Shown in pieces: positions 13,555-58,192 of a stretch of DNA of 58,577 nucleotides. Origin of the DNA: Tortispora ganteri (lineage: Eukaryota). The position numbers and the translations under genes are program-made. The notes below the pieces were generated by a model. The model worked only from the letters and a program-made list of their open reading frames with translations, was not told the DNA's origin and searched no databases. Location of the stretch: the NCBI GenBank assembly GCA_003707115.1, contig PPNB01000026.1, positions 1-58,577 of the forward strand, written 5' to 3'. Each line of letters begins with the position of its first letter. Positions within the stretch are counted from its first letter, which is position 1.

Positions 13555-13815
13555 TAAAAAAAAAGTGTAAAAAAGTATAAAAAAAGTATGAAAAATGATA
13601 AAATTTAACGTATTTTGTATAATTTGGTCTATATTACCGATAATCTTTGTAAATTAAGGATATTTTTTATATTTATTAAAGAGATAAAATATACCTTAAA
13701 TAGGGTTATAACACCGATAATCTTTAGCGATATTCGTATTTTCATAAAATTCGTACTTTTTGTAAGGCTACCCCCTTAGGAAATTTAAGGTTTTTAGAAT
13801 TATGGCTATACACCC
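13555..13815 (-). repeat. modular element family A, copy 1 of 7
   Basis: Invariant CTAAGGGGGTAGCCTTACAAAAAGT; other cores at about 14488(-), 26583(-), 41211, 42632, 44068 and 45382(+). Confidence 0.9.
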
Positions 13816-15439
13816 TATTATATATTCAAATATTTAGAGTAAAATTATGCTAATTTTTGATAGTTTTTGGACTTTAATTTACTCATTTGTTAAGAAATAA
13901 TTAATAATATTTAAATTATTATTTAATTAAATTTATTATAAAATATCTCATTAATAAATAAATAGTTATTAATATATATATTAAATATAATATAAGATTA
14001 TAGAATTTATAAAAATATATATTATATACTAATGACAATTGACAATAACAATTGGTATTTAAATTTGACAAGTAATAGTAATATTGGCCTCCACTTAAAG
14101 TGTATAATTATAACTATGAGGTATTAAAGGTCGGCCAATGTAAATTTTAATCTAATCTAATCTAATCTTAAATCAACTTTAACATTTAATTAATTTAATT
14201 TTATGTAAAAGTTAAGATTATATATATATTATAGATATTATATTAAAAATATATTTATATAATAAAACACTGAATTAATAAATAAAATTATAAAAAAGTA
14301 GAAAATTAGACAAAAAAAGTAGAAAAAATGACAAAAAACATACATATTTAGCTAAATTAGTCTATATCACCTATTATCTTTGTAAATAAATGATATTTTA
14401 TATAATAATAATAAATCAATTTAAGAGATAAAATTAGGCTATAATACCTATTATCTTTTGATATTATTGACATTTGATAAAAATCGTACTTTTTGTAAGG
14501 CTACCCCCTTAGAGATTTTTTACTTTTTAGTTATTGGCTTTTATTACCTATTATCTTTACATATTTTTAGCTAAATTTTATTCGTATTTTTAATAAATTA
14601 TTTACTATTTTTAACATTATTTTATTACTATAATTTTTAAATATAAATTAAGTTATACATATTTTATAGTTGGAATAATGATTTAGAATTTATATATATT
14701 CAAATTTATAGGATTATAATATATTAAAGTATTTAAATGTATAATATTAGCTTTATTTTTAAGATTTACTACTATATCGCTAATATTATAGGTAAATCTT
14801 AAAAATATATTGTTATAAAGTTACTTAGAAACGTTATTATAGTTATAGTAATAATATTGTATAACTTTGTAAATATATATATGTTATAGATTAATATTAT
14901 TAGGTTATATTATTTAACTTAATTATAATTATAAATATTATTTAGAGAATATAAATTGAATTCAATTATTAAAATTATTTAGAGATAGATATTAATAAGT
15001 ATATAATATTAAATATAAGATATTATATTACATAATAGATATTAGATAATAGATTTTAGATATTTCATAATAATATATTAAATAAAATAACATATATTAT
15101 ATAATCATTATATAATCCGGCCAAGGCGTATAAATATTCCCGGACATAAGACTTTATACCTTAGCTTATATAGTTAATTATAATTTAGTTATTTGTTAAA
15201 ATAGATTTTATTTAGATATTAATTTAAATAGATAGATAAATTTAATTTTAATAATAATTTGGATAGATATTTATAATTATATAATTAGATAATTTATATT
15301 ATTAATCATTAATCATTAATAATTGAACAATTATGTTATTAATAAATTTTATTGAGATATATATATTATTATAGAATTATTGAAATTATAGTATAAAAAC
15401 ATTAGAAATATATAATAATTAAGTAATAATTGACAATAA

Positions 15440-15886
15440 TTGTGTAAAAAAGTGTCAAAAATTGCACAAAATATACACATTTTTTTAAGCAATATTTAAA
15501 ATGTGGCTTCTAAGCCTAATATCTTTGTATAAAGATACTCACTAATAATAATCTTTGGTTTCAATTGCTCCCCAATACTACTTATACAATTCAATTTTAA
15601 TTTTAAAATTCTATATAATTTAATCATATAAAAGAGTTATAAAATTCTAGTAAATTAGTTAATTAATGCATTTATATACCTTATATTACCTATAATCTTT
15701 TATTTTAGTGTAATTATACTCTATTTTTTATATATTAAATAATAGTTGAAAAGTTTGACTAGATTTGAAAAAGTTTAAAAAAGTTCTAAAAGTAACGAAA
15801 ATGGGATTTTTTGGAACCTAAAAAAAGGTCTATTATACCTATAATCTACCCTAAACCTCTATTTTACCCCTGGAATTTTGAAAATT
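15440..15886 (-). repeat. modular element family B, copy 1 of 7
   Basis: Invariant TTTTCAAAATTCCAGGGGTAAAAT, TTTTCGTTACTTTT and TGTATAAG(TAG)TATTGGGGAGCAATT; other copies at about 16658-17103(-), 25670-26131(-), 41761, 43292, 44493 and 45869(+). Confidence 0.9.
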
Positions 15887-17375
15887 CTTAACCCGTTATT
15901 TAGTGGTTTTTTGACAATTATTATTATCATTAGTTTATTTTAATTTTTATTAAGCTCATTTAACTTATATTAATAATCATTAATTAATTAATTTTTATTA
16001 ATTATCAGAAAATTTCTTTAATTAGTAAATAATAAATATAATATAATTAAAGTTTTTTCGATAATAAAATTGAAATTGAATTTAAATAGGAATAAATAAA
16101 ATTTGGATAAATATATATAAATGTAATTTATAGGTTTTAATTTGTGATTTATAATTTATAATTTATAATTTGTAATTTATTATATATAATATCTAGTATT
16201 AAGTATTAGTGTATATTTGGCCGACCTTAAAAACCTTATTATAAACTATAATTTATATTAGTCTTGCTAATGAATGGAGGCCAATTATATTTATAAATAT
16301 ACTTTTTATATAGATCTTTAATTCAATGTAATAAGTTAAATATAAATAATTAAGTTATAATATTAATTTATAAATATATTTACTTAGAATTAAATATTAT
16401 CTAGAATATTTAAATAATATTTGTTTTAAATATATTATATTTAGAATAATCATCATTAAGTTTCAGATTAATTTTAAGATATTAATAATAAAATATTTAG
16501 ATTAAGATATAAAATTAGATAGAAATTATATTTATATAATAATTAGGATAAATATTTATTTATTAAATAATTTATCTATAAAATAAACAAATATAGTTAT
16601 AATTTTGTATAATATAAATAAATATGATAAAAATTATGTAATAATTATATAAAATAATGTAAAAAAGTGCAAAAAAAGTGTAAAAAATGACATAAAAAAA
16701 ATTAGGAAAATTAAAAATGAGGGTCTGGGACCGAATATCTTTGTATAAAGATACTCACTAATAATAATCTTTTGTTTTAATTGCTCCCCAATACTACTTA
16801 TACAGTTCTATTTTAATTTCATTTTTCTACCTTATTTAATATTATTATTTAGTTATAAAATTATATTAAATTAGTTAATTTATATATTATAATATATTGT
16901 ATTACCTATAATCTTTTATTATATATATATTCTATGACATTTCTAACTTAATATTTGATTCTAAAATTAAAGAGGGTATTTTAAAAAAGTTTAAAAAAGT
17001 TCTAAAAGTAACGAAAACGCGATTTTTCCACTAGCTAAAAAGGGCTTTCTAGACCTATAATCCACCCTAAACCTCTATTTTACCCCTGGAATTTTGAAAA
17101 TTCCTTGTCGCTTTTTTTTATACTTTTTGTTATAAAATTAATTAAAGATAAATTTCTTTTACTTCTGTAGACTTTATCTTTATAATTTAGTTGGATTATT
17201 GTAATATACTTTTAGATAAATTCGTAATTAATTAATTCTATATATATTAAAAAATAAATTATATATCTATTTAAATTTAGTAATAATTAATAAATAAATT
17301 TATAAGTAGTTTAAGAGATGTTTTGAGTAACACAAAAAAAAAATAAGAATTAAAAAAAAAAACAAAAAAAAAATT

Positions 17376-23991: not shown

Positions 23992-24033
23992 TAATTAATA
24001 AGTTAATAAATTGTATTTATCAATTATTATTAT

Positions 24034-24105
24034 CAAAAGTGAAGAGACTTGAACTCTTAACAAATAGTTTGGAACTACCGATTTTACCAATTAAACTACA
24101 CTTTT
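24034..24105 (-). tRNA. trnW: tRNA-Trp(CCA)
   Basis: GGTAG-ttccaaa-CTATT. Confidence 0.9.
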
Positions 24106-24150
24106 ATTATTATTTATTATTAATTAGTAGGAAAAAATTTTTATATTTAT

Positions 24151-24360: not shown

Positions 24361-26877
24361 AATTTTATTTGATTTTTGACTACATATAGACCTATTTAAC
24401 TATAAATCTTAATATTTTTTAATTTATAATAAGATTATATTTATAATTATTATAATAATTATTAAGTATTAAATTCTACGAAATAAGTCAAGATTATATA
24501 AATGGCCGGGAGGACCTAAAATAATAAAATATAGGCGATATGCTTATTACCCGGCCATATATTCATATAAATATATTAATATGATATGATATTTATTCAT
24601 TAGTTATTATTTATATTAATTTTATAAAATAATAATACAAAACAAATATATTTATATTGATTACTTAAATCCTACACAAAGGATATAAAGATTAAATGAT
24701 AACTACTACCCTCACTTCACTATTAAATAAAAGACTTTAATTCTTATTAAAAGTATTACGTTCGGGGAATGAAGTAATAGATAGAGTACTAGAGTAATAA
24801 AGTACTAGAGTACTAGAGTAATATAATAATATAATACAATATAATATAATATAATAAAATAAAATATAATATAATAATAGAGTAATAGAATACTAGAATA
24901 ATAGAGTAATGAAGTAATGTAATGTATTAATATAGTAATGGACTAATGTATTAATAAAGTAATGTAGTAATAAAGTAATGTAGTAATAAAGTAATGTAGT
25001 AATAGAGTAATGGAATAATGGTGTAATTAACTAATGGGGGGAATGGTGGAAGTTAATATTAAATATCTATTGTCTTAAAGATTATCGGGTTAGAAAGGTA
25101 TATTAAGTGTATATCTAATATACATATACGATTTTTACCCTCATAGCTTTTTAGATTTATTTATGTCATTCTTATATTATTAATATAATAAATAATAGTT
25201 AGATATAAATATAATAAATATAATTATATAATATAGTTATAATTAGTATAATAGGATAAATATCTAAGTAATATATAACAATTAAGACGTTGCAGACAAC
25301 AATGAACGAATTATTAATAATATAAAACTATTATTATAGATAAGATATATAAATATTATAATTTTAGGAAAATAAATTAAAATAGCAATAATACCCTCAC
25401 TTCACTATTTACTCAAGGGATTTTAGATTATTATTAAAAGTGTTACGTTCGGGGTTAAACATAAATATATATTTATTATTTAATTAATATTAAAATTAAT
25501 ATACATTAGATTTAGATATAATAAATTTAAATATATAAAATAATTTTATAATAATTATATTATAATTAAGAAATTATTTTAACTAATTATAAATAAATTA
25601 AATTATTAAAAATTATAAAAATATTGACATAAAGTAAGAATTATGATAAAAATATATAAAATTTAGTTAAAAATAGTGTAAAAATGTGCAAAAAAGTGTA
25701 AAAAATTGCATAAAAAATGCATAAAAAAAATAGCAATTATAAAAATAGGGGTCTGGACCCTAATATCTTTGAATAAAGATACTCACTAATAATAATCTTT
25801 TGTTTTAATTGCTCCCCAATACTACTTATACAGTTCTATTTTAATTTCATTTTTCTACTTTAATTAAAGACTATAAATAATAGATAAATTTTAGTTTTTA
25901 TCTTAATATTTAGTTAATTTATATCTGTAATACCTATAATCTTTTATTATGTTCATATTCTACTAGTTAAGCTTATACTTAAATTTAAGTTAGTAAATTA
26001 GTCTAAAAATAAAAAAGGTTAAAAAAAGTTCCAAAAGTAACGAAAATGGGATTTTTTGACTATCCTAAAATAGCTTACTAGACCTAATATCTACCCTAAG
26101 TCCCCATTTTACCCCTGGAATTTTGAAAATTCTTAGACGTAATTTTTTAGTTTAATAAACATAAACATAATTTTTATATCATTAATTATTAACTAATTTG
26201 TTGTAATATTTTTTGATTTATTAATCTTTATAATATACTAAATTTAATATTATAATTCTTTATTCTTTTATTTAATAAAATATAAATTTAAATATATGAT
26301 TTAATTTATTAATTAATTATTATATTATTAAAATATTATTCTTTCTAGATTTATTAAAATAATATTGACAAATAATAATTTATAAAAAAAAAGTATAAAA
26401 AAGTGCAAAAAAAAGTTAAATTTTTATAAAAAAGTACAGATTTTCTCAAAAATGGTCTTCTAGCCTTATAATCTTTTAAAAATAAGTCAATTAACTAATT
26501 TAAAAACGAATGTATAAAATTGGTAAAATAGGGGTATAAGCCCTATAATCTTTTGTAATATTTTCATTTACTGAAAAATGCAACTTTTTGTAAGGCTACC
26601 CCCTTAGAGATTTTTACATTTTTAGAAATATGTCTATAACACCTAATATCTTTACCTAAATTTTACCCTAAATTATACTAAAATATTACTTAATTTTTAT
26701 ATAATTTTAGATATATTTTTACTTAAATTTTATATTTAATTTTAAAATAATATTAATTTAATTAATAATAATAATTTATAAAATTAATATTTGTTAAATA
26801 AAATAATTAAAGATAATAAGTGTTTGTATTTAATAATTTAATACTTAAGTCTATGAGTAGAATTTTAAGTATTAAAA

Positions 26878-29441: not shown

Positions 29442-32400
29442 ATGGCAATTAGAAAAACAAATCCGCTATTATCTATAGCAAATGGTTATATGTTAGATTC
29501 ACCACAACCATCATCTTTATCATATATGTGGAATTTTGGAAGTTTATTAGGATTATGTTTAGTAATTCAAATATTATCTGGAATATTTTTAGCAATGCAT
29601 TATAATTCAAGTACTTTAATGGCATTTGATAGTGTAGATCATATTATGAGAGATTTAAATTATGGTTGGTTAATCCGATATTGTCATGCTAATGGAGCAG
29701 GATTCTTCTTTATAATGGTATATTGTCATATGGCTAGAGGTATATATTATGGAAGTTATAAACAACCTAGACAATTAGCTTGGTCTATAGGTGTTATAAT
29801 ATTCTTAATAATGGTATTAACAGCTTTTATGGGTTATGTATTAGTATGGGGTTCTATGAGTTTCTGGGGTAAAGTTTTTGCCCTAAATGTTTTTAAATAA
29901 ATAATTATTTTTATTTCAGATTTTATCTTCAATAATAAAAAACCACAAAAAAAAATAAACAATGAAAAAGACATTAACAAAAAATGATTTAAACAGAATA
30001 TTAAAAGAAAATAATCTTTATACAGTTTTTACTAGACCAAATGTAAGATCATATAAAAGAATTGGTCCTCATAATAAATGTGTTCTAGATTTTATGTTTG
30101 GATCATTATTAGGATATTCAAAAATTAGAAATTACAATGATGTAGGTTATAAATTAAAAATTTATAATCAACATAGACATGCTTCTTATTTTGATTTCCC
30201 AGTTGATTTCTTAATTAAACATGGATATTTTATTAGAACTAATAGTATTTTTGATATGAATGTACATTCAAGAATGAATAAATATAATAAACCTTATATA
30301 TATTTAGAAATTAATTTAAAAGCTATATCAAGTTTATGTTGGTTATATGATATGTTTTATATAGAAGATGATCATAAAATTTTACCAAATAATAATGATT
30401 TAGATTTATATTTAACTCCTTTTGCTTTAGCTATCTTATTTATGAATAATGGATATAAATATCATTCTGGATTTAGATTAAAAACTAGTCATTTTACTTG
30501 TGAAGAAAATGTTAGATTATCTAATTTCTTAAATGCTAAATATAATTTAACAACTAATGTTATTTATAGTAGAAATCAAGATGATATTCAAACTTGTACT
30601 ATATATATATCATATAAAACTGTTGAACTTTTTAAAGAATTAATTTCTCCTTATTTACATCCTTCTATGTATTATAAATTAGGAATTGAGGATAAAAAGG
30701 AATAATTATTCTATTAAATACATAGTTAATTATTTATATTAGCAACATTAGTGAAAATAGGTCAAATATTATTATTTATTTAATTTAGACCATCGGTTAT
30801 TGATATTTTTAGATCTATTATATTTAGATTTTTATACAATAATCGCGACAGACTGGTCCACTAATGGGTAATGAACAATAATAAATATAAATTTCTATTA
30901 TATAATATTATTATTATTACATTGCTTAATGTACAGTCGAATATTAGATATATTAATAAATAATATTAATATATTCCAATGTTATAATAATTATTATTCA
31001 AGCGTATGTCAGAATATATTATAACAAGGTATTATAAACTTACTGAAATAAGAAAGATAATATATAATATTGGCAACAGTTATTACAAATTTAGTATCAG
31101 TTATACCTTGGGTTGGTAATAGTATTGTACAATTTATATGGGGTGGATTTGGAGTTGGAGCACCAACTTTAAGTAGATTCTTTAGTTTACATTACTTATT
31201 CCCATTCATCTTAGCTGCTTTAGCTGCTGCTCATTTAATCGCTTTACATAAAGATGGAAGTAATAATCCTTTAGGTATATCTAGTAATATGGATAAATTA
31301 TCTATGCATCCTTATTTTATATTTAAAGATCTAGTTACTATATTCGCTTTCTTATTCGTTTATGGTTACTTCGTATTCTTCTCTCCTGATACTTTAGGAC
31401 ATCATGATAATTATACTCCAGCTAATCCTTTAGTTACTCCTATTTCAATAAAATAATATTTATACTTAATAATTAAATGAAATTATATATTAAACAAAAA
31501 TTTTATAAAAAAAATCCTAAATTATTAAATAAATATGATTCATTAAATTTAAAAAATTTAATTTGTGGATTATTTCAAGCTAAAGGATATATAGAAATAG
31601 AATTTTATAGTAAACATAAATATACTTGTAGGCCTATAATATATATAAGTATGAATTATTCACATAATACTTTAGAATTGTTTAAAATTATAAATGAAGT
31701 ATTTAATTATAAATTGAATTTATCTATAAATTTACTAAAATCTGGTAAATATCAAATATGTATATATTCTAGAAATTGAAATTTTATATTAAATGAATTT
31801 ATACCTTATTTAAATAATGTTTATGGTAATAAATATAAAAAATTTAATTATTTAAAAAGAATTCATAGTTTATTAATAAAATTAATTATTAATCCTAATA
31901 ATATTAATAATAAAATTAAATTAATTTATCTTGCTTATAGTATAAGTCCTAATTTACAAAGAAAAATTAGGCTTATAGATAAACTTATTACTTTAAATAT
32001 TTATAATAAAGAATATCTTAATTATTTATTAATTAATAATTATGCTAAAAATGTTGAAAATAATAAATTTAATTGTAATATATTTTTTATATTAGGACTT
32101 TATTTAGGTAATGGAAATATTAATTTTGATATTAGATATTCTAATAAATTACCTTTATATATAGTTAAATTTATTATCTTTAAAAAATATACTAAAGATA
32201 ATACAAAATTAATAATATTAATACAAAAATATTTAGATTCAATTAATATTATTTCACAATTATGTATTTATAAAAACTATATTGTATTAATTATAGAAAA
32301 TAATAAATCATTAAATATATTAAATAATAAAATAAAGTATGAAAATATGCATTTTAATAAAAATATTCAATTAACTATGTTAAATATATATTTAATATTA

Positions 32401-33370
32401 CAAGGTCCTTCAAAATATTTAGAAGAAGCTAATTTATTACTTAATTATTTATTTAAGGGAAAAAATGAAAAATTAATAAAAGATCAATTTAGTTTAAAAT
32501 ATATTAATAAAGATATGAGATTTATTTATAAATATAAGGATAAAGGATATTCTGTATCATTACCCTTTAAGACAAAGCCTAAAATTAAGTATTTTTATTA
32601 TTCAACCTATAAAGATAATACTTTAATAGCAGCTAAATATTATAGAGATATAAGAATTAAAAATTGATTAAAAAGTATAAATATTATATTGTTGCATTAT
32701 AATTTATAAGTTATAATGAAAAAAGAGGTGAATTACAAAGATATCTAAGGTTTAATTATTTATAAAAATATAAATATATATATTAAACTATGACAATTTG
32801 TAGCGAAGCTTATTTGAGATACTAATATTAAGATTAATTTTTTTAATATAATAATTAGAATAAGAACGTTCAACGACTAATAAGTGAGTTTTAAAGTATC
32901 AACAATAATCTTAACACGAGTGCCTCTCAATATTATAGTTATATAACTATTATTGATGACATAGTCTGATCCATAATGAAAATTATGGAAATAAATTTTA
33001 AATGAATTTATGATAACACAAATGAGTACCTGAATTCTATCTTTTACCTTTCTATGCTATACTTAGAAGTATACCAGATAGATTATTAGGAGTTGTAGCT
33101 ATGGCTGGAGCTATTCTTATATATCTTGCTTTACCTATCTTAGATAGAAGTATTGTTAGAGGTAACCAATTTAGAATTTTAAGCCAATTAACTTTCTGGA
33201 TATTTGTATGTAATTTTATAGGTTTAGGACATATAGGAGAATTACATGTTGAAGCTCCATTCATTACTTTAGGACAAGTATTAACTGCATATTACTTTGG
33301 ACATTTCTTTATTATTTTACCATTTGTTACATCATTAGAAAATGTATTATTCGAATTAAATCAAGAATAA
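29442..33370 (+). CDS. cob: apocytochrome b (exons 29442-29870, 31073-31449, 33025-33370)
   Basis: [38 protein letters not shown]; exons total 1152 nt in frame. Confidence 0.97.
29871..31072 (+). mobile_element. cob intron 1, group I, immediately after codon G143 (nt 429)
   Basis: Exon ends GGT; core GCGACAGACTG...GTACAGTCG; terminal G. Confidence 0.9.
29962..30705 (+). CDS. degenerate LAGLIDADG protein
   Basis: [25 protein letters not shown] and C-terminal PSMYYKLG, typical of this family. Confidence 0.8.
   Translation: MKKTLTKNDLNRILKENNLYTVFTRPNVRSYKRIGPHNKCVLDFMFGSLLGYSKIRNYNDVGYKLKIYNQHRHASYFDFPVDFLIKHGYFIRTNSIFDMNVHSRMNKYNKPYIYLEINLKAISSLCWLYDMFYIEDDHKILPNNNDLDLYLTPFALAILFMNNGYKYHSGFRLKTSHFTCEENVRLSNFLNAKYNLTTNVIYSRNQDDIQTCTIYISYKTVELFKELISPYLHPSMYYKLGIEDKKE
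31450..33024 (+). mobile_element. cob intron 2, group I, with its ORF apparently in the P1 loop
   Basis: Exon ends TCAAT; candidate guide TATTGTTG near 32687; core GAACGTTCAACGACTA...ATAGTCTGATCC; terminal G. Confidence 0.88.
31477..32709 (+). CDS. degenerate LAGLIDADG protein with a C-terminal extension (about 410 aa, TGA=Trp)
   Basis: Motifs [10 protein letters not shown] and [10 protein letters not shown]; no TAA or TAG until 32707. Confidence 0.75.
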
Positions 33371-34643: not shown

Positions 34644-35779
34644 TATATAATTTAGCATACATTTTCACTTATTTTTAGTACACATATATATAATTAATAT
34701 ATTATAATTATAATTTTACTTTTAAGTAAAAAACAAAAGAATATTAATTATTATCATTAATAAATATATTGACTATTGGCCTCCATTGATAGGATTAAAA
34801 TTTATTATATTAGGTCATTAAGGTCGGCCAATTTTAACTTTAAACTTTAAACTTTAAACTTTAAACTTTAAACTAATTGTATAATATTTCATAGTAAATC
34901 ATAAATATTATAGTAAATATTAGATAATAAATATAAATATTTTAGAATAAATAGAAAGTAAACAAAAAAAAATTAAGATAAATAAATTGAATAATATTAT
35001 GCAATTAGTTTAATGAAGCTAGATAAATAAATTTAGATTAAACTAAAAGCTATAATTAATTAATAAATTTAGGTTAAATATATATATAAAGATATAAATT
35101 TGTATAATATTAGCTTTTATTTTTAAGATTTACTAACATATTGCTAATATTATAGGTAAATCTTAAAAATATATTGTTATATAATCCCTAAATAAAGTTT
35201 ATAAGTTTAATTAAATATTATATATAATTTATATAAGTTCATAGTTAATTAAATATATCTTGGTTATTTTAATATAAATAAATAGCTTTATGAAATAATT
35301 AATAACATTTATAGTTATAATTTATTATAAACATTAAATAGATATAAATTAATCATAATAAAAGATATAAATTATAATAATAGATAAAAAATTTAATAAT
35401 AATAATAATCTAATCTAAAATATAAATTATAATAATAAAAGATATAAAAGCTATTAGATAATAATATTTATTTAATAATAATAATTTAATTATAAAATAT
35501 ATATATTTAAGATTATTTGGATTAAAGATATTATATAATAATAAGATTATTAAAGTTTTATTAAGTTAAATATTAAGATAACAAATCTTAAATTAATCTA
35601 GTAATTATAGTACGGGCCCTAAAACACTGTGGCTTATATTAATTTAACCTAAGAGTGGCCCGTACATTATAGAATAGTATATATAAGATATATATTCTTA
35701 AGATTAGATATATAAGTTTATATATAGATATAATAATATAATAGATACTAAAAATAAGTGATAATTATTGTAATAAGAT

Positions 35780-37464: not shown

Positions 37465-37837
37465 CATTTTTGTTATCATATATTCATTTAAAATATATTT
37501 CCATATATTATACCTACTCTATATGGATCAGACTATTTCATCATTATTTATCAAATCTAATATAAATAATATGTTATTTAATAATTAAAGCATATTATTA
37601 AATTAAATAAATTTTGATATTAAATGTCGGGCGCTCTTGTTGAGATTATTGTTGATATATACTCACTCATTAGTCGTTGAACGTTCTTATTACTTTTATA
37701 TTTATATCTTCATAAGCTTCGCTGCAGATTATCCTGGATATAATTAATTAATTAATTATATATAATTAGGAGGATTTCCCTGACAATTCACCCGATTTTC
37801 CTTATTAATTTTTATAATAAGGGGACTAACAGAATTA
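37465..37837 (-). mobile_element. rnl ORF-less group I intron at L2449 (omega site)
   Basis: Interrupts TAGGGAT/AACAGG; P1 GGGAU/GUCCC; P10 CUGUU/AACAG; terminal G. Confidence 0.93.
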
Positions 37838-39166: not shown

Positions 39167-41169
39167 TCTCGTCCACCTATACTAATGTAGTATCTTCACT
39201 ACAACTAAAATTTCACTGGCTCTATTGTTGTGACAGTTGATGGATCATTTCGTCATTCATGCGGGACTTCAATTATAAGCCAAGGAATTTCGCTACCTTA
39301 GGACCCTCAGAATAAGGCCGCCATTTTATCGGGGATTACTTTAAACGTCATTTTAAACATTTAATATTACCCAGCCGTAATTGGGCAGAGTTCACACCTT
39401 ATACTATGAATTGCTTCTTTGCAAAGTGCTGTGTTTTTGGTAAACAGTTGCCCATCTTAGTTAACTTATTTCACATTATAGATGAAATATATTTTATGTT
39501 AACATTTTTGCCGAGTTCCATAACAATAGTTGTGCCATTCACCTTAGTTTACTAAACTAACATACCTGTGTCGGATTTCATGACAGTCTTTTATTATTGA
39601 TCTTTTATTTATTTGATTTTTATCAATAACTTATTCACACATCAATTATTCTTTTCAGAATATTATCTTAGTGACCGTTTTTTCATTTAACAACCTTATG
39701 TTTTAGGTGAAAAGGATTTTACCTTTTTTTCGTTACTCATGTTAGCATTATCAATCTCATATTATCAATTTTATTATTATATTATTGGTAATACAATATA
39801 ATTTAGATTTTTAATGAGTGTTGAGGTACCAATAAATAAATAAATTATTTATTACAAAATATCAGTAATATTCTTAGATCCGTTATATTTTAGACGCATA
39901 AAATATTATTATTAAATATCAGTGCCTTGTTACAGGTTCATTAAAAGGAAGCTATTGCTAAGCCAACTAACTGATTGATTTATATTAAATACTTTCTTAA
40001 TTTCACTTAGATTTTATTAATTAATTTATTAGATTAATTAATGAATATATTTTGGAACTTTAATTTTGTTCTTGGTTGTTTCCATTTTGACTAACTACCT
40101 TATCACAATTAGTCCGAGTATTAAACAATATACTTATATTACTTCCGAGATTAATTATTAAAGGTAAAAATCGTTAAATTCCCCCTTTAAATATTCAGTG
40201 CTGTACTAATTATAAGCTAAATTTAACCCTATACTAAAATATATTTCCCTCAAAACCAGCTAATTGTTAGTCAGATTTGTCTTTCACTTACTTAACTACA
40301 CTCATTGGATACTATTGCGACAGTAACCCATTCGGTCATAAATATTATTAGCATATTTATACCTGGTGTAACTAAGATCACTAACTTTCGGGTCTAATAT
40401 TAGTTACTTAAATTTTTACATTCTCATTTCATCTTTGAAATTCGCAACTAATATTAACTTGCTAACTCATTATGCAAAAGGCAATAATTCTTACTTATTT
40501 CATCATTATACCTTATAGAATTACTAATCTTATAATTTCCTTCACAGTACTTGTAGCTTTATTAACAATATTTAGCCTTAGAGATAGATTGTCCCTGTTT
40601 TCTACTATTTAGTATACTTAGTGGCTATTATGATTTCAATCGCCTTTACTTTCATAATCTCGGTTTGATTTTTTTTCCTTGAGTTACTAAGATGATTCAA
40701 TTCACTCAGTTTTCTTATTATTATTAAATATTTATTTAATAATTTATTTCCTTTTCAGGATAGGTATGAATAACTTTTTTATTAATTATTATTCATTTAA
40801 CCTTCTTGTTATAAGCTATTATAATTATAATAATCCCTTTAAAACTAAATAATTAGTTTCATTGATACTACCAATATAACATTTTAGATATTTAAATAAT
40901 ATAAGCATATTAGGTTATATAAATTAAAACAATAATAATAGATTTTATTTATACGGGCCACGCTTAGGAATTATAGATTTAGCCTAGGAGTTACAGGGCC
41001 CGTATCAGAATTTGATTTAAATTATAATTAGTCATTTGCGTTTAACTATTCTTATTAATTATTATTTATTATTATAATATTTTATTAATATTTATAAATA
41101 ATATAGATATAATTTTAGGTTAATTTTAGGTTAATTTTAGAAGATTTTGTGGTATAAATTATTAATACT

Positions 41170-44100
41170 TTTTAGGGGTTAAAGACCTAATTTAAAAAAT
41201 CGTAAATTCCCTAAGGGGGTAGCCTTACAAAAAGTTGCATTTTTGACTAAATGTAAATATTGCGAAAGATATTCGGGCTAGAAGCATACTTTTTAGTATT
41301 TTTATACTTAGCTATTTTTAAAAATTATATCATTTATTTTAATACATTATAGGTGCTATAGACATAAATTGGTATAAAGTACACTTTTTACACCTTTTTT
41401 ACACTTTTTTTTACACTTTTTTAATTAATTTTTTTTTATTTATAGATATTTAAAATTTTTAACTAATAATAAATATTAAAATATAGAATATATAGAATTA
41501 AAATTTAAGATAATAAAAACCATAAAGAGGTGGTAAATAATCAGATGTCCGGGAAGATTTTTACGCTTTGGCCGGAAGGTATAACTTTAGAATATTTAAC
41601 TTTATATATAAATATAATAAACTAATAGTTAATTAATGAGAAATATATAATTAAAAATAAAATTAAAATAACATTTTTTTTTTTAGGATTTTATAATTAA
41701 ATTATCTTTATAAAAATTATGATGGAAGTTAGTAGAAAATTTTAATAAAATTACGTATAAGAATTTTCAAAATTCCAGGGGTAAAATGGATAAGTTGGGT
41801 AGATTATAGGTTTAGAAAGCTATTTTTGGATAGCTGAAAAATCACGTTTTCGTTACTTTTGGAACTTTTTGTAACTTTTTTATTTTTAATAAAATATATT
41901 CAAAATATTACATGAGTTAAGTAAATTAATATTTATTAGTTATTTTTTAACATTATAGGGTTATAAGGGGTAATTTATAGATAAAGCTAAATTTAAAATA
42001 GCATTTAGAGACTAATTATAGACATTATTTTAAATAGAAAAATGAATTTAAAATAGAACTGTATAAGTAGTATTGGGGAGCAATTAAAACAAAAGATTAT
42101 TATTAGTGAGTATCTTTATTCAAAGATATTCGGGTCCAGACCCCTATTTTTAATTTTACTAATTTTTTTTATGCAAATTTTGTGCATTTTTTTACACTTT
42201 TTACATTATTTTCACATTATTTGACTCTTTTTTACATAAATTTAATAATTTATTTGTAAGTTTTATATTTAATTTGTAATATTATAATAAAATATATATA
42301 TATTAATAAATAAAAATATATTATAAACAATATTTAATATTTAATATTTAATAAAAAAAATATTAATATAATTTTAATTAGTTTAATATTTATAATATCT
42401 AAAAATAAATCTATTTAATTAGTTAGTTAACAATAGATTATATAAATATAAAAAAAATAATTTAATTTTTACTTTAAATAAATAACTATGAGATAATAAT
42501 ATTATAATAATTATCTATATTAAATTATATATATTTAGTATATTTTAACTAAATTAATTTAAATAATAGTTACAAATTATTTGCAAACATTTTAGGTATT
42601 TAAGCTATAATTATTCAACTATAAAAATCTCTAAGGGGGTAGCCTTACAAAAAGTACGATTTTTAGCTAAATGTAAATATTGCTAAAGATTATCGGTTTA
42701 GAAAGGTAATTTTATGGTAGTTTTTGATAATTTAGTTATTAGATAAATATCAATTATTCTTAAAGATTATAGGTTATAAAGCTATAATTTGATATAAAAT
42801 GCACTTTTTAACACTTTTTACACTTTTTTTTGTGTATTTTGATTGAAAGTTTATTATTTATATAAATTTTTAATTTTTAGTTAATAATAAATATTTAGAT
42901 ATAAAATATAGAGAATTAAATATTAAGATGATTAAGAAATATAAAGAGGGGGAAACCAATCAAATGTCCGGGAAGATTTTTACGCTTTGGCCGGAAGGTA
43001 AAGTAAGCAATAACTAAATAAATATTAAATATACTTTTGGTTTAATTTAATATAAATTAATTTAATTTAGATTTATTTACTTTATAAATTTTCTTAATTA
43101 AATAATAATAGTTAAGGTAAATTTTAATAATAATAATTAAGATAAATTTAAATTATAATAGTTAAGATAAATTTAAATTATAATAGTTAAGATAAAATTT
43201 AATAATAATAATAATTAAGATAAATTTAATCAACTAATGGTTAATTAATTATACATCAAAAATAGTCAAATTTTAATAAAATTACATGGTGGAATTTTCA
43301 AAATTCCAGGGGTAAAATAGAGGTTTAGGGTAGATATTAGGTCTAGGAAGCTATTTTTGATGAGTTAAAAAATCCCATTTTCGTTACTTTTAGAACTTTT
43401 TTAAACTTTTTTATTTTTAATAAAATATCTTCATAATATTACAAGGTTTAACTAAATTAAAATAGATAAGTTATTTTTCAACATTATCGGGTTATAAGGG
43501 GTAATTTATAGCTAAAGCTAAATTTAGAATAGCATTTAGAGAGTAATTATAGACCTTTAATTAAAGAGAATTTTGATTTTAAAAAAGAACTGTATAAGTA
43601 GTATTGGGGAGCAATTAAAACAAAAGATTATTATTAGTGAGTATCTTTATTCAAAGATATTCGGTCCCAGACCCTCTTTTTTAATATTGCTTAAAAAAAC
43701 TTACACTTTTTTTGCACTTTTTTGCACTTTTTTACATCGTTTTTACATTATTTTGATACTTTTTGACATAAATAGCCAAATTTATTTGTAATTTTTATGT
43801 AATTTTTATATTTATAAAATTTATTAATCTAAATATTTTATTAAACTATTTAATCATCTTAGTATAATTTTATTTAACATATTATTAATAATCTAAATAT
43901 CTATAAATTAGAAATGATAAATATATATTAAATATATTTTTAACTAAATTAATAAAATATTATTATTAAATAGCTGAATTTTTAAATAAAATAATTTAAG
44001 TAATATTTGTCAATTATTTTAAAACATTTTATAGGTTAAAGCTATTATTATAAAAAAGTAAAAATCTCTAAGGGGGTAGCCTTACAAAAAGTATGATTTT

Positions 44101-46340
44101 TAGGAAAATACAAATATACCTAAAGATTATCGGCTTAGGAAGGTAAATTTATACTATTATTTCATAGTTTAGTTATTACTTAAATATCAATTATTATGAA
44201 ATATTACCAGTAATATAAACCTAATTTGTGATAAAATACACTTTTTAATACTTTTTTAACTTTTTTTAACACTTTTTTACACTTTTTGTTAATTATCTTA
44301 ATAATTAATTTTTAGTATAAAATATATATAATTTATTGTTATAAAAATTATTGAAATTAAATTAGTTATTTAAATTATAATTTATATATTTAAAATATAT
44401 ATTAATAAAATATTAAATAGGGATTAATTAATATTTATTATTTTATAAACTAGAAAATAATTTAGTCCCAAAAATAAGAAAAATTACATGTAGGAATTTT
44501 CAAAATTCCAGGGGTAAAATGGATAATTAGGCTAGATTATAGGTGTAATAGACCATTTTTAAGTGGTTAAAAAATCCCATTTTCGTTACTTTTAGAACTT
44601 TTTTAAACTTTTTCATTTCTAAAGGGAGGAATTTATAGAATGATATTAAATTAGAAATATTAAAGTATTTAAATATATTAAAACATTATAGGGTATAAAG
44701 GGTGGAATTATATAATTAACTTATTTTAAACTAGTATTTAGAGAGTAATTATAGACCTTTAGTTAAAGAGAAAAATAAAATTAAAATAGAATTGTATAAG
44801 TAGTATTGGGGAGCAATTAAAACAAAAGATTATTATTACTCTGTATCTTTATTCAAAGATATTCGGGTCCAGACCCTCTTTTTTAATATTGCTTAAAAAA
44901 AGATGCTATTTTTTACACGTTTTTTACACTTTTTTGCACTTTTTTAACATTATTTATACATTATTACTCAATTTTTCAATAAATATCCATAAATAAATAT
45001 AATAATCTCATAATTCACATTTATATAATTTAATATTTTGAGATAATTATTATAATTAATAATTAATTAATATTAGCCTAATTTTATTAATTTGTATAAT
45101 AAATTTAATTGTATATATTTTTAATATCTGAAAATAATTAATATATATTATATTAGTATTCAAATGTAATTATTTTATTTATAATAGCTAATATTTATAA
45201 TTAATCTATATATAATAAAATTTTATATTATAATTATAATTATAGCTAAAAGTATACAAATTTATGTCTATAATATAACTAAAAGTGTTATAAATTTAAT
45301 TTCATTTTTAGCTCTTTTTTGTAGGATAAATTTCGATACATAATAGGTAATATAGTTAAAATTATAAAAATGTGAAATTTCCTAAGGGGGTAGCCTTACA
45401 AAAAGTGTAAATTTCCATTAAATTGAAAATATGCAAAAGATATTCGGTTTAGAAGCTATATTTTAACCATTTATTATATTGAAATTTAACTTAGTTTTTT
45501 AACTTATTTTTAATACATTATAGGTGTTATAAGCATAATTTGCCTAAATAGCTCAATTTTTGCCTTTTTTAGACATTTTTTTTTTACTTTTTTATACTTT
45601 TTTATAAATTACTTAGTTATTGTCATTGTCATTGTATAATTTTTATAATAATTAAATAAACTTATATTAATATACTTTAATATTATAATTATTATTTATT
45701 AATTTAATATATATAATCCATTAGCTAAATTATTAATTAATAAAAATTATATCTATTATTATTATTTTATTATTAAATTTAAGATTAATATAAAAATCTA
45801 ACTTATATTAATTTGCAAACTGAAATTAAAATAATTTAGTCCCAAAAAAGCTTAAAAATAAGTTATCGAGTTTTCAAAATTCCAGGGGTAAAATGGATGA
45901 TTAGGGTAGATTATAGGTATTAAAGACTATATTTTAGTAATGGAAAAATCCCATTTTCGTTACTTTTAGAACTTTTTACAACTTTTTTATTTTTAAATTA
46001 ATAAATTTATAACATTAAATTATTTTATTAATTTAAGTTTAGTTATATAATATTAAACATTATAGGGTATATTAAGTATATTAATGTAATATATTGATTA
46101 TTTAATCTAATTTTATGACTATTATACAAGATTAAATTAGATAGAATTTTGATTTTAAAATAGAATTGTATAAGTAGTATTGGGGAGCAATTGAAATCAA
46201 AGATTATTATTAGTGAGTATCTTTATTCAAAGATATTAGGCTTAGAAGCCACATTTTAAATATTGCTGATTTTTTTTGTGCATTTTTTGTCAATTTTTGT
46301 ACACTTTTTGTCAATTTTTGCATTGTTTTTGTAATATTAT
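41170..46340 (+). repeat. array of four alternating A+B modular elements (period about 1.3-1.5 kb)
   Basis: A cores at 41211, 42632, 44068 and 45382; B starts at 41761, 43292, 44493 and 45869. Confidence 0.9.
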
Positions 46341-49792: not shown

Positions 49793-51259
49793 ATGTTATT
49801 TACATTGCTCACATTAGAATTAATGTTATCATCCTACAAAGACAGTCACATCCCAGGTACTAAATTAAGTATATCTCATTATTTATCGAGATTAACAATA
49901 ATAGGCCTAATTTATTCAATAATATTATTATATCATAATATGATATGAAGTGAAAATTTAATTCGCTTAAATTTATATAATGATAGTTTGACCACAACAA
50001 ATTATTTATCTTTAATAGAAATATTAATATATATGATAAGTATAATAATATTATTTATAAATACAACACGATTAAACCAAAGTTATGGTCGAATAATCAC
50101 AGAATACCCATTATTATGTTTATTTACGATATTGGGTAGCATATTATTAATAAAATCAAATAATATGTTAATGATGTTTATATCGATAGAATTACAAAGT
50201 TATTCTTTATATTGTTTAAGTGTAATATATAATGAAACTGAAAATTCAACAAAAGCAGGCTTAAAATATTTCTTTTTAGGTGGTTTAGCTTCAATATTAA
50301 TATTATTAGGAATAGGAATAATTTATGGAGAAACAGGTGTATTAAATATTGAATATATAATAAGTTTATTAAATTATACAAATATTAATACTCAAATAAA
50401 TTATGGTATAATAATTATAATAATCGGTTATTTATTCAAAGTAGGTGCAGCTCCTTTCCATAGTTGGTCTCCTGATGTATATAATGAAGTTCCAACTAAG
50501 ATAACAGCTTGGATAAGTGTAATCCCAAAAATAGGATTATTAGTTTATATAGGTTTATTATCAAATTTATTAATAAGTAATAATAAATTTTTATTAATGT
50601 TAGCAGGTATATTATCAATATTAATAGGAGCTATAGGTGGAATATCTGAAATAAATTTTAAAAGATTATTAGGATATAGTGGTATAACTAATGTAGGTTA
50701 TCTATTATTAACTTTAAGTTCTTATAATAATATAATAAAAGAAGGATTTATTGTATATTTAATTCAATATTCAATAATATCAGCTAATATATTTTTAATA
50801 ATAATATTATTAGGTATATATAAATCAAAATATTTATCAAATAAAAGTATATTATCACCAATAAGATATATAAAAGATTTTAATGAATTATATAATTATA
50901 ATCCATTATTAATAATATGTTTAACAATATCATTATTCTCATTAATAGGAATACCACCATTAATAGGATTTTATAGTAAATATTGGTTAATTCAAGAATT
51001 ATTAAGTGGAGGTTTAATTTATCCATCATTAATCTTAATATTAGGTAGTGTAATAAGTTCATATTATTATCTTAATGTAATACGAAATTTATATAAAATA
51101 AATGCCACAGAAGAATATGAAAAAGTAACTAATACTTTATCAATAAATTTATCACCAATATTAAGTTATTTAATATCAGTATTAACAATATTTACAGTAT
51201 TTATGTTTAGCGATTTTGAGTCTATATTAAAAGGTTTACATATATTAAGTAATATCTAA
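49793..51259 (+). CDS. nad2: NADH dehydrogenase subunit 2
   Basis: IELQSY, GLKYFFLG and FKVGAAPFHSWSPDVY motifs; frame extends upstream through TGA 49946 to ATG 49793 (start less certain). Confidence 0.92.
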
Positions 51260-52592: not shown

Positions 52593-54104
52593 ATGAATTT
52601 AAATATATTATTATTATTAATACCATTACTAACAATTGGATTTTTGAGTCCTCTATATAGTAATGTTGAGATAGCAATTTTACCTTTAAAAAATTATTAT
52701 AAAAATATGCTTTTAGGGGTTTACGTTAAGAATTATAAAAATAAGATAATGGAATTATCATTATTAGGTTTAATAATATCCTTAGGTATAATATCTATAA
52801 TATGAGCAAATTTCAATAGCTTAGAATTAGGTTTTCAAGGTATAAGTTATACTTTTAATAGCTTAAATTTAGGTTATGATGGTAATTCAATATTTTTCAT
52901 TATATTAACAGGTTTAATAATGCCAATAGCTTTATTATCTAATTGGTATAACTTACCTAAAGGTAATCATAATGAAAAAGGATATGCAATATTAATCTTA
53001 TTATTAGATTTATTATTATTAACAAATTTTTTAATATTAGATATAATAGGATTTTATATATTCTTTGAAAGTATTTTAGCTCCATTTTATATATTAATTG
53101 GAATCTATGGAAGTACAAATAAAGAGAAAGCTTCCCTTTATCTTTTAATATATACATTAGCTAGTTCTTTATTAATGTTATTAGGAATATGTATGATAAA
53201 TATATTATCACATACAACATCTTTTATATTATTAAATAATTTTGTAATGTCAATAGAAGTTCAATCAATAATTTGGTTAGGAGTATTTATCGCAATAATG
53301 GTAAAGACTCCAATATTCCCAGTACATGGTTGGTTACCTGTAGTACATTCGGAATCTCCATTAGGTGGTTCAATAATCTTAGCTGGAATAGTCCTAAAAT
53401 TAGCAATATATGCAATAATTAGAATATTATTACCATTATTATCAGAAGCAACTATATTATTTACTCCATTAGTTTATGTAATATGTGCAATAACAGTAAT
53501 ATATACTTGTTTAGCAACAGTACGACAAACAGATACAAAAGTAATTATAGCTTATAGTTCAATATCACATATGGGAGTATGTTTATTAGGTGTATTTGCC
53601 AATAATTTATTAGGATTAGAAGGTGCAATGATGTTAGGATTAGCTCATGGATTTGTATCTCCAGCATTATTTATTTGTGTAGGAGGTGTACTTTATGATA
53701 GATATCATACTAGAATTGCTTATATATATCAAGGATTAGCAACATATTTACCATTATTTAGTACATATTTATTAGTATTTAGTTTAGCTAATATAGGTAC
53801 ACCATTATCAGGTAATTTCTTAGGAGAATTCTTAGCCTTAGCAGGTGCATATCAAAGATCTCCTCTAATTGCAGTATTAGGTGTAACTAGTGTATTATTA
53901 AGTGCAGTATATATGATGAGATTTACTTCAAAATTAATTGGAGGTATTAAACCTAAAAATTTACCTATAGTTAAAGATTTAACTAATAGAGAAATAACTA
54001 TGTTTAATTCATTATTAATACCTATGCTATTATTAGGTATTTTACCTAATTTTGTATTTAAATCTTTAGGTACTTCACTCTCAAGTTTACTATATATAAT
54101 ATAA
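52593..54104 (+). CDS. nad4: NADH dehydrogenase subunit 4
   Basis: The two ORF-track pieces join through TGA 52803; FFES, HGWLPVVHSESP and AYSSISHM motifs. Confidence 0.96.
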
Positions 54105-54811: not shown

Positions 54812-57800
54812 ATGCAATTTATATCACGATGATTATTTAGTACATCAGCTAAAGACATTAGTGTATTATATTTAATAATATCACTATTTTCAGGAATGAT
54901 GGGTACAGGATTTTCAGCAATAATGCGATTAGAACTATCTAGTCCAGGATATGTATTCCTACACGGGGACAATCAAGTCTTCAATACCGTGGTTTCTGCC
55001 CATGCGATCGCGATGAGTGCGCCAATGTGTGTTGCTGAAGGGTTGACCTTTCTAAATATAAGGTTAGCAAACGAAAATAGTTGCTTAAAGAGCTATCAGG
55101 CTGGTGGAATCAAACTCCATGAGGAAACTCAAACAGCTAAGCTGATAGAAACGGGAGTAATTGAAATTATAACTCAAATTTTATACTTTATTCCTTATCT
55201 AATTTGTTCAACGTTTAGGATAACGAACTTGATACACAATATTCATCACAATGGGATCGCTGTTAAATGAGTTAATAGAACAGTAGCGTTATTTCTCCTA
55301 ATTTTATCATCGGTTTTAGGACTATTTTCAACAAATAACGGAAAATATCACATAGATATCTATAATTGTGCAAGGAACCTAGAACAAAGCGCCCTCTCAA
55401 CGAACTTTGGGATCACCTACGGGAACCAAATTTATTCTAAAATTTATTCAAAAATTTATTGTGTTCCTAATAATTCTAATAATAATAAATTTATTAATAG
55501 AAGACCCTTTAATGGGTGGTGACGGAATTGTCATAGTAGCATACAAAACAATATGCAAAGGACAATAGTTGTGAACTTACAAGTGAGAACCTTTTCCTCA
55601 AAAGCCGATCTTAATAAATTTAGAAATATAGAGATGTTACGTGGCAGCGAAGATAAGAAATCACTCAAATCTATAAATATAAATATAAAAAATATTAGTA
55701 ATATCAAAAATCTGATAACTGCTTATGAATTAATAAAAAGTAATCCTAGTAATATGAATCAAAAAAGAGATAATCTAACTCTTGATGGTTTAACTATGAC
55801 AACTTTACAAGATATTCAAACTAAATTAAAAGCAGGTAAATATCTCTTTAATCCTAGTACTAGAATTCAAATACCTAAATTAATAACCAAGGGAACAAGA
55901 TCTCTAACAATATCTTCCCCTCGTGAAAAAATAGTGGAAAAAGCAATACATTTAGTATTAGAACGCTATTACGAAAACAAATTCTTACCCACTTCTCATG
56001 GATTTAGACCTGGTAAAAGTGTTCATACTGCTATGAAAAATTTAGAAGCAGAATTTCAAAGTGTACATTATATAATTGAAGCTGACTTCTCTAAAGCATT
56101 TGATAATATACAACATAAAACTCTGCTAACTATTCTTAAAAAAGATATAAAATGTGAAAAAACATTAAAATTAATTAAATCTTTACTAAAAGCTGGATAT
56201 ATTGAATTTGGAAATCTGCATAATGAATTAAGTATGGGTATATCTCAAGGTTCAATACTTAGTCCTATATTATGTAATATTTATTTAAATCAATTAGATT
56301 TATATATAGAAAAGTTAAAAAGTGAATATAATATAGGAAATAAAAGACCAAAAAATATAGAATATGAAAAATTACAGAGTAAAGCCAAATACTGAAGAAA
56401 AAAAGGATATGACAAAAGTCAACCTTTAGAATATCAACAATTATTAAAAAATTTAAGATCCATACCTAGTATTGTTCATAATAAGGAATTTATTAGAATA
56501 CAATATGTCAGATATGCGGATGACTTTCTTATAGGAATAGAAGGTAGTTATACAATGGCTAAAGAAATATTAACAAAAATAGATGAATTTATTACTAACG
56601 AATTACAATTAAAATTAAATCCAGATAAAACTCATATAACTAAATATTCAATATATCCTGTCTCATTTTTAGGTTATAATATTATGGCTCCTCATAAGAA
56701 GAATATTATAAAACCTATTGAAGTTATTCCAGTGAATGGTAAACTAATTAGCAGAAGAAAAAAGATCAGAATTAGAATAGGAATGGATTTAAACAAAGTT
56801 TTAGATAAACTAGCTCAAAACGGATTCATTCGAAAAAGGGTTTCCCATTCTAAACATAATAAGCTAATATATAGAGGAACTTTTAAAGGTAATCTAATTA
56901 ATTTAGATCATGCCGATATATTAAAATATTATAATTCTATAGTAAGAGGATTAACTAATTACTATCAATTTGTGGATAATAGAAGTTCATTAGCCTGAAT
57001 TCAATGGCTTATAAAAGAATCTTGTGCCTTAACGTTAGCAAGAAAATTTAAATTAAGAACTTTAGCTAAAACATTCAAAAAATTTGGTAAAGATTTATCT
57101 GTAAAAATAAAAGGCAATATAATATTATCATTTGTTAGTATTAAATATCAATCTGCTTCTAATATCGCATACATTATACCTGAAAAAAAGAATCCTTTCA
57201 AAAGCTTAGAGTCAGTATGAAACGCAAAATTTACCAAATCTAATTTAAATGCATCTTGTATAATTTGTAATAGTAAAGACAATGTTGAAATGCATCACGT
57301 CAGAAAAATTAGAGATTTAAAAAATAAAAATAGTAAATTAGACTTTTTCACAAGACAAATGGCAGCTATTAATAGAAAACAAGTTCCATTATGTAAAAAT
57401 CATCATATTAAATTACATAATAATATGTTAACATCTTTAGAAAGAACATTATTTAAACATAACATAAATAATAAACAATAAATAAATTACTAATATGACA
57501 TATACTTTATCTATAGAAGGTTTAGATTAACCAAGTTTACAATGGAAAGCCGTATGATGGGAGACTATCACGTACGGTTTGGAGGGCAGTAGTCTCTTAA
57601 GGAGCCTCGACTGACCCTACTATTCTTCATGGTGATGCCTGTTACAATGGGTGGATTAACGTTTTAGTCCCCTTATCATTCATTTATTAGGAATAATAAG
57701 GAAAATCGGGTGAATTGTCAGGGAAATCCTCCTAATTATATATAATTAATTAATTAATTATATCCAGGATAATCTGCAGCGAAGCTTATGAAGATATAAA

Positions 57801-58192
57801 TATAAAAGTAATAAGAACGTTCAACGACTAATGAGTGAGTATATATCAACAATAATCTCAACAAGAGCGCCCGACATTTAATATCAAAATTTATTTAATT
57901 TAATAATATGTTTTAATTAAATAGCATATAACATATTATTTATATTAAGATTTGATATATAATGATGAAATAGTCTGATCCATATAGAGTAGGAAGAATA
58001 TATGGAAATATATTTTAAATGAATATATGATAACAAAAATGTTGCCAATTTTTTCCTTCCCCTATTAATTGGGGCATGTGATATGGCATTCCCTAGATTG
58101 AATAATATTGCTGTGTGGCTGCTTGTACCATCGATAATCTTATTTGTATCTTCTGCTGTTGCCGAAAATGGTGCTGGTACTGGTTGGACAGT
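54812..58192 (+). CDS. cox1: cytochrome c oxidase subunit 1, exons 1-3 (54812-55016, 57621-57656, 58042-58192); gene continues across the window origin
   Basis: Spliced translation MQFISRW(TGA)LFSTSAKDI...[39 protein letters not shown]...GTGWTV matches the Cox1 N-terminus. Confidence 0.96.
55017..57481 (+). CDS. group II intron reverse transcriptase/maturase/HNH protein, in frame with cox1 exon 1 (TGA=Trp)
   Basis: SHGFRP, QGSILSP, YVRYADD and C-terminal HHVRK...CKNHH; the ORF-track fragments share one frame and are separated by TGA. Confidence 0.92.
55017..57620 (+). mobile_element. cox1 intron 1, group II
   Basis: 5' GTGCG; domain V GAAAGCCGTATGATGGGAGACTATCACGTACGGTTT near 57545; ends ...CCCTAC; removal restores M-IFF. 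Confidence 0.95.
57657..58041 (+). mobile_element. cox1 intron 2, ORF-less group I intron (omega/L2449-like)
   Basis: Exon ends GGAT; P1 GGAUUAA/UUAGUCC; core GTTCAACGACTA...ATAGTCT; terminal G; removal gives GGF-ANF; near-identical to the rnl intron. Confidence 0.93.

Follow-up and report, generated by a model that had tools for sequence, protein, structure and literature searches.

What do fourteen long, modular repeats do in a fungal mitochondrial genome, when their short blocks hardly vary and the DNA between them has diverged? The question is raised by two families of elements, A and B, in a 58,577-nt stretch of Tortispora ganteri DNA (the window) that is the entire contig C768 within a 9.6-Mb assembly. 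Both families are built around three copies of one short motif at fixed positions. They are ori-like in outline yet do not match the ori/rep family of Saccharomyces, and their layout suggests an undescribed replication-start or DNA-anchoring element of mitochondrial DNA (mtDNA). The contig was recognised as a fungal mitochondrial genome by its content of cox1-3, cob, nad1-6 and nad4L, atp6, atp8, atp9, rps3, rns, rnl and ~25 tRNA genes. The host was placed in Tortispora because a nuclear RNA polymerase III subunit shares 98% identity with that of Tortispora caseinolytica, the next matches (Lipomyces) reaching <=75%; close relatives of the cox3 protein were found at 94%, 80% and 78% identity. 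Two DNA sequencing runs contain 0.90 of the words, one of which may be the source, so that they give no independent support, and no RNA run was listed among those sharing the words. All results on the elements concern this one genome of one species.

An earlier note on this DNA had counted seven A and seven B elements, arranged as A-B four times on the forward strand, as one A-B pair on the reverse strand and as B,B,A,A on the reverse strand. All 14 were recovered in those places and orders (Table 1). They are confined to three gene-free gaps (12.9–17.4 kb, 24.4–26.9 kb and 40.8–49.7 kb), and no truncated or decayed copies were found. The 25-bp A core occurs nowhere in the 9.6-Mb assembly outside the mitochondrial contig, and a BLAST search of the assembly with one B copy returned seven places, all on that contig.

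Conservation within the elements was sharply uneven. The A core is exact in 7/7 copies, as are blocks B2 and B3 of the B family; B1 and B4 are each exact in 6/7, with one mismatch in B1 (at 45869) and an altered loop in B4 of the 44.8-kb copy. In six B copies the landmarks lie at identical offsets from B1 (B2 +85, B3 +298, B4 +330), and the seventh differs by a single nucleotide inserted after B2 (B1-to-B3 = 299 nt vs 298 nt in 6/7). Alignment of the seven copies of each family required gaps in 0/240 columns for A and 1/416 for B, while the spacers, at a median pairwise identity of 0.46–0.52 (21 pairs; range 0.29–0.90), approached the 0.35–0.39 expected from composition. Spacer columns without any variation amount to just 7% in A and 14% in B, so invariant blocks of 25–26 nt cannot have arisen at the rate of the spacers. 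Thus the claim of near-invariant blocks separated by diverged spacers of kept length was borne out by alignment of all copies, the lengths proving base-exact and the spacers ~50% identical. The further claim that neutral duplication would not leave such a pattern is likewise supported, pointing to selection on both the blocks and the spacer length.

Homologous flanks between the modules served as a control and varied in length (427–487 nt, 775–887 nt, 216 vs 328 nt and 690 vs 740 nt). Gap openings per substitution were ~3x more frequent in seven flank pairs (0.26) than inside the elements (0.08–0.09, a figure inflated by the pairwise aligner). The 'fixed spacing' of the earlier note holds inside each element but not between A and B, where the distance from the A core to the next B1 is 427, 487 or 476 nt in adjacent elements. 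This variable distance, together with the B,B,A,A cluster, argues against the obligate two-part ('bipartite') unit that had been proposed; a more fitting view is that A and B arrange shared parts in two different ways.

One such part is site I, a ~22-bp motif (AA(G/C)AT(TA/AT)T(A/C)GG-K-N3-R-N-A-R-N-C) present in three co-oriented copies in every A and every B element (42 in total), at offsets of -45, +55 and +132 from the core in A and of +38, +187 and +361 in B. Its core had 37 matches within the elements, all on the element strand, vs 2.75 expected; genes held 21 (24.5 expected) and other intergenic DNA 20 (13.6 expected). The six position classes resemble one another in register (cross-class identity 0.58) far more than when shifted (0.17–0.34), and each family predicts the sites of the other: of 117,112 windows, the 60 best for a matrix trained on A included 21/21 B sites, and the 60 best for one trained on B included 19/21 A sites. 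The full matrix recovered the 42 sites and gave scores above 9 bits to seven other windows, including three strong matches, and the strict pattern had one match off the mitochondrial contig in 9.6 Mb. Site I carries ~21 bits of information (14 natural variants), and its conserved bases form two patches about one helical turn apart, as would fit a DNA-binding protein that makes contact along a single face of the helix. The three strong solo matches outside A and B lie at 1658-, 17791- and 25076+, two of them within group II introns and one in intergenic DNA. Site I was also considered as a homing-endonuclease target and rejected, since 5/5 group I intron junctions scored <=2.9 vs 8–28 for the sites; the cob-intron open reading frame (ORF) at 31477–32709 was rejected as its binder because the homing junction of that ORF does not match site I.

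A helical period was apparent in the T-tracts of the tails and of B2. Intervals of 9.5–11.5 bp made up 69/82 of those between tracts (A tail 20/27, B tail 28/31, B2 block 21/24) vs 18/78 in the remaining intergenic DNA, counts that are not independent because the tail windows were chosen after the tracts had been seen and the copies are related. Periodicity had its power maximum at 10–10.5, and the spacers showed no clear A/T periodicity. To judge only from this phasing, the A and B tails and B2 are putatively bent DNA. Fixed geometry and helical period together make it very probable that a nucleoprotein complex assembles on these elements as duplex DNA.

B differs from A in carrying a promoter-like motif. 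TATAAGTA followed by GGGG occurs in 7/7 B copies and is absent from A, and its interpretation in the earlier note as a plausible mitochondrial promoter beside a G-run gained support from matches near transcription units. The TATAAGTAG of B recurs as an identical 9-mer 75 nt upstream of cox2. The pattern TAT[AG][AT]GTAG, which was widened after upstream matches had been seen and is partly post hoc, has ten matches, seven in B and three lying 26–75 nt upstream of cox2, tRNA-Gly and tRNA-Arg; inside genes the widened pattern had 0 matches vs 4.0 expected. One-mismatch variants with GTA intact precede 6/11 gene starts picked by the analyst, where the background rate is 0.14 per 100 nt and a binomial calculation of our own gives p of about 0.001. 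For comparison, the yeast mitochondrial promoter is given as WTATAAGTA (PMC5726470) and that of C. albicans as WWATAGGTA (PMC4618339). The motifs in B lie 1.5–7.7 kb from the next gene on the same strand or are antisense (two B copies) and are thus not gene promoters; if active, they would serve something other than gene expression. Each divides its element into ~300 nt upstream and ~150 nt downstream.

We tentatively favour, as the best single account, that A and B are protein-bound, bent-DNA modules for replication initiation, with B primed by transcription, a reading derived from sequence features. A and B would then be cis-acting double-stranded DNA platforms at which mtDNA replication starts. 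A sequence-specific protein, probably nuclear-encoded, would bind site I three times per element, and the bent tracts and exact spacers would allow the DNA to wrap or loop into one complex. In B, mitochondrial RNA polymerase would start at TATAAGTAG and synthesise RNA over the G-run that serves as primer or forms an R-loop; alternatively, such a start could mark a break for recombination-dependent replication. The promoter-less A would act as an accessory module, as a helper, in opposite-strand priming or as an anchor. Molecules with more working copies would be replicated or inherited better, and copies would be kept and multiplied. The promoter and G-run in B, the copy number and the lack of decayed copies fit replication-initiation modules under mtDNA competition. 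For Saccharomyces ori, competition among mtDNA molecules (PMC9054137; PMC5592933) and selection favouring origin-dense molecules (PMC9054137) have been reported.

The resemblance to Saccharomyces ori/rep elements, of which Saccharomyces mtDNA holds 4–8 that bear promoters (PMC5726470), is one of outline. Shared features are a nonanucleotide promoter adjoining a G-run (in 7/7 B copies; A lacks it) and multiple dispersed intergenic copies, here 7 + 7. Membership of that family, with which the earlier note had compared the elements, is not supported by the defining blocks, the spacing or the promoter placement. The G-rich 19-mer of cluster C of Saccharomyces ori (PMC5726470) had no match in the window at <=5 mismatches, and the hairpin clusters GGGTCCC - 29 AT - GGGACC had none at 20–40 nt spacing, GGGTCCC itself being absent. 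Neither the sequences of clusters A, B and C nor the ~200/29 spacing was found; there are two families, one of them promoter-less, and no inactivated copies. The ori lies downstream of its promoter (PMC5726470), whereas most of B lies upstream. Conversely, a thrice-repeated ~22-bp site and phased T-tracts are not described for ori in the passages that treat it in PMC5726470, PMC5569933 and PMC9054137. Another parallel is the kinetoplast minicircle, likewise mitochondrial, with invariant blocks in a conserved origin region and helically phased A-tracts that bend the DNA (PMC10719067). Those invariant blocks are bound by a sequence-specific protein (PMC10719067); lineage and sequence are unrelated, and there is one such region per minicircle vs 14 modules in one chromosome here. 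Dispersed intergenic repeats are also known as the GC clusters and double-hairpin elements of yeast mtDNA, which families C and D (Table 1) resemble (PMC5726470, PMC4618339); A and B differ from them in being 280–460 bp, AT-rich, multi-part and not hairpins.

A more specific form of the replication reading is possible, although we regard it as doubtful. A dedicated, sequence-specific initiator or partition protein might act on three iteron-like sites at base-exact distances on bent DNA in two module types, the promoter-bearing B and the promoter-less A. Iteron plasmid origins and resolvase res sites likewise combine bent or AT-rich DNA with a set of ~20-bp sites that share one orientation and are separated by fixed distances. 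The sites in A and B differ in lying 77–174 bp apart and out of phase, and they are not known to have a matching Rep or recombinase gene. If true, fungal mtDNA would have a control system resembling iterons or centromeres, one that evolved independently of Saccharomyces ori.

Several observations weigh against the replication reading. Half of the modules, the A elements, have no promoter, and in B the promoter is placed near the far end. The promoter pattern is partly post hoc, and the 8/11 gene starts preceded by plain TATAAGTA with <=1 mismatch are no significant excess over its background of 0.57 per 100 nt. The copies of site I are out of helical phase with each other (9.5, 7.3, 14.2 and 16.6 turns). 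One of the seven flank pairs, from A to C (335 vs 334 nt), has as few indels as the elements, and fixed length is also seen in the small families C and D. GC skew shows no clean switch at the clusters, a measure that is uninformative here because the intergenic blocks are inverted duplicates. The blocks of S. cerevisiae ori are absent, and the role of ori in wild-type S. cerevisiae replication is itself disputed (PMC5569933).

The main rival, which we consider unlikely on balance, is that A and B are nucleoid-organising or segregation anchors similar to point centromeres. AT-rich DNA of fixed length, with sequence-defined protein sites on either side, would be wrapped around a core of protein and tie mtDNA to the membrane or to the inheritance machinery; the promoter of B would be secondary. 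The same geometry (spacing, phased tracts and site I) speaks for it, as do the sites and bend that A carries without a promoter and the missing switch in GC skew. In point centromeres the length of CDE II is strict. Their CDE I-II-III layout also consists of two protein-binding motifs around an AT-rich region, defined by geometry, within a nuclear, 125-bp, nucleosome-based unit that has no promoter and no repeated site (PMC5010909). Anchoring leaves unexplained the invariant promoter and G-run of 7/7 B copies and the strictly uniform orientation of the elements in each cluster. No protein emerged as a candidate for it, none of the six HMG-box genes in the assembly being established as mitochondrial.

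Control of transcription, through arrays that load or hold polymerase, enhancers, polar barriers or a short non-coding RNA from B, appears improbable. Every cluster is situated between transcription units, the C. albicans consensus WWATAGGTA (PMC4618339) has an exact overlap with the core of site I in 8/42 copies, and the same nonamer occurs 73 nt upstream of tRNA-Thr. However, at the position that would be +1, site I is free to vary (A in 11/42), for which reason site I was rejected as a plain promoter. Neighbouring units have promoter-like motifs of their own 21–75 nt upstream, and the 14 copies far outnumber the units, with two B copies antisense.

The three sites per element, each weakly palindromic, recall resolvase res sites, which have three recombinase subsites at fixed spacing. 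It is nonetheless quite improbable that A and B are site-specific recombination sites or non-autonomous mobile elements that spread by transposition or drive inversions. The copies are mosaic, nearest neighbours changing along the element (PHI-type p = 0.0005 for each family, in a test that can be inflated by rate differences among sites); the left end of B copy 1 is nearest to copy 2 and its right end is 96% like copy 7. Gene strand changes at two of the three clusters. Ordinary crossovers in invariant blocks would yield mosaics too. Profiles for tyrosine recombinases (PF00589) and resolvases (PF00239), which detected controls in 14 and 12 of 14 genomes, respectively, had 0 matches in the assembly, which may be incomplete; PF03796 gave two weak partial matches there. 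No consistent terminal repeats or target duplications were found in 14/14 copies, whose approximate edges showed only 5–9-nt AT-rich matches that differed in each copy. The lack of truncated copies and the failure of group I homing junctions (0/5) to match site I also count against mobility.

Neutral duplication, with GC-richer blocks homogenised by gene conversion, could draw on the exchange between copies and on the clusters at 13–17 kb and 45–49 kb, which are inverted paralogues. We judge it very improbable, as conversion would neither preserve the length of ~50%-identical spacers nor keep one motif at six positions in two families, nor phase tracts, and the flanks gather indels. Least credible of all is that the elements are transcribed into structured non-coding RNAs, since B1, B4 and the DNA following site I position 3 could form short hairpins (2/7 copies share one change on both sides of a stem) but covariation over just seven sequences per family, with a term of +2.82 (unfavourable) in B and zero in A, gave no sign of a conserved structure, the spacers were unpaired, folding z-scores ranged from -1.9 to +0.6 (28 strand-copies) and a 10.5-bp period is a property of duplex DNA. 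The RNA tests and the helical phasing of the tracts thereby support action as double-stranded DNA. The elements had no Rfam match and no shared reading frame, the longest stop-free stretch being 11–59 aa.

Relatives of the elements were sought more widely. Exact matches to B3 numbered 0 in metagenome and genome contig collections and those to B1 and the A core 0 in a viral contig collection; these collections are poor in fungal mitogenomes, so blank searches there say little. An 18-nt part of the A core matched ten metagenome loci (36–47% GC DNA), which were rejected as chance because all ten diverge directly past the match; 9/10 fall within one unrelated repeat. A literature search, which took in few of the older papers on ori, turned up nothing on elements of this kind in Tortispora or Trigonopsidales. 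The elements are unmentioned in main-text passages of three surveys (10.1101/2021.06.11.448017, PMC9154068, PMC10701893), and the repeat screen described in the first two kept >=50% GC and 90% identity and would thus have dropped A and B. Passages of a review name ori-like elements for S. cerevisiae and close relatives only (PMC11277600). Neither the start of mtDNA replication in fungi nor the partitioning of mtDNA is settled. If real, an initiator or anchor with sequence specificity would, in a yeast that branches so deeply, be a new part of mitochondrial genetics, and at minimum the elements would represent an independent origin of ori-like selfish elements. The site I matrix, exact spacings and promoter are ready bait for pull-down of the binding protein and for mapping of replication starts.

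Table 1. Coordinates of the A and B elements, of their parts in one copy of each, and of other repeated modules in the window.
Feature	Position	Strand	Remarks
A copy 1	13560..13839	-	
A copy 2	14293..14572	-	
A copy 3	26388..26667	-	
A copy 4	41151..41430	+	Three copies of site I, core of 25 bp and tail with phased T-tracts; approximate limits
A copy 5	42571..42850	+	
A copy 6	44008..44287	+	Site I position 1 moved 2 nt; weakest site scores
A copy 7	45322..45601	+	
A core, all copies	13755-, 14488-, 26583-, 41211+, 42631+, 44068+, 45382+		25 bp
B copy 1	15440..15900	-	
B copy 2	16656..17116	-	
B copy 3	25684..26145	-	Sole internal indel, +1
B copy 4	41748..42208	+	Limits approximate
B copy 5	43279..43739	+	
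B copy 6	44481..44941	+	
B copy 7	45855..46315	+	
A copy 4, site I position 1	41166..41187	+	-45 from core
A copy 4, core	41211..41235	+	25 bp, invariant 7/7
A copy 4, site I position 2	41266..41287	+	+55
A copy 4, site I position 3	41343..41364	+	+132
A copy 4, tail	41380..41440	+	T-tracts phased at 10-11 bp (bent-DNA signature)
B copy 4, B1 block	41762..41787	+	Short palindrome and G-run
B copy 4, site I position 1	41800..41821	+	+38
B copy 4, B2 block	41837..41882	+	Four T-tracts, 10-bp period
B copy 4, site I position 2	41949..41970	+	+187; alone between two diverged fixed-length spacers
B copy 4, B3 block	42060..42085	+	Promoter-like TATAAGTAG (42062-42070) then G-run; invariant 7/7
B copy 4, B4 block and site I position 3	42092..42144	+	Site I at +361 (42123-42144)
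B copy 4, tail	42165..42240	+	Phased T-tracts
Family C	13111-, 15116-, 41546+, 42965+, 46559+, 47392+, 47511+, 48343+, 48809+		
Family D	9546+, 13347-, 14086-, 16217+, 34778-, 47186+, 48067+, 48517+, 54185+		
Family E	14779-, 35143-, 46984+, 47853+, 49169+		
18-nt motif	9506+, 12526+, 22579+, 23690+, 33446+, 34662+, 35747-, 54145+		

The window holds further small repeats. Family C comprises nine GC-rich inverted-repeat modules, all 31 nt long and mostly preceded by a conserved flank, which are co-oriented with A and B in the clusters. Family D consists of GGCC-ended, hairpin-like modules (52–54 nt in 8/9, 66 nt in one), several of which bear a core like that of site I on their other strand. 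Family E is made up of five AT-rich palindromic modules of ~90 nt that are almost identical and each contain a reversed site I-like core. A 53-nt GGGCCC-ended hairpin module is present in two copies (35611–35664 and 40952–41004), one of them just upstream of rnl, and a degenerate short-period tandem repeat (24780–25040) lies between small-module copies at 24756 and 25443. An 18-nt motif follows cox1, nad5, nad1, atp6, cob, cox3, atp9 and nad4 and is likely a 3'-end RNA processing element, a class reported for Trigonopsidaceae (PMC11789488).

Among the introns, a 378-nt stretch of 94% identity is shared in inverted orientation by an rnl intron and a cox1 intron (37465–37829 and 57664–58041), which suggests recent intron movement. 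The second cob intron contains the 410-aa ORF (31477–32709 +), which has no Pfam match and three relatives at 35–38% identity. A low-confidence model (pLDDT 46) gives it a LAGLIDADG-like fold, the usual acidic residue being missing from both motifs; its conserved C-terminal tail may be AP2-like, going by appearance, in a region where the model is unreliable. In cytochrome b, the motif known as PEWY reads PEFY (33026–33040 +). The sole tRNA-Trp (24033–24106 -) has the anticodon CCA, and in-frame TGA is absent from most core genes, occurring once each in nad2 (49793–51259) and nad4 (52593–54104) and several times in intron ORFs.

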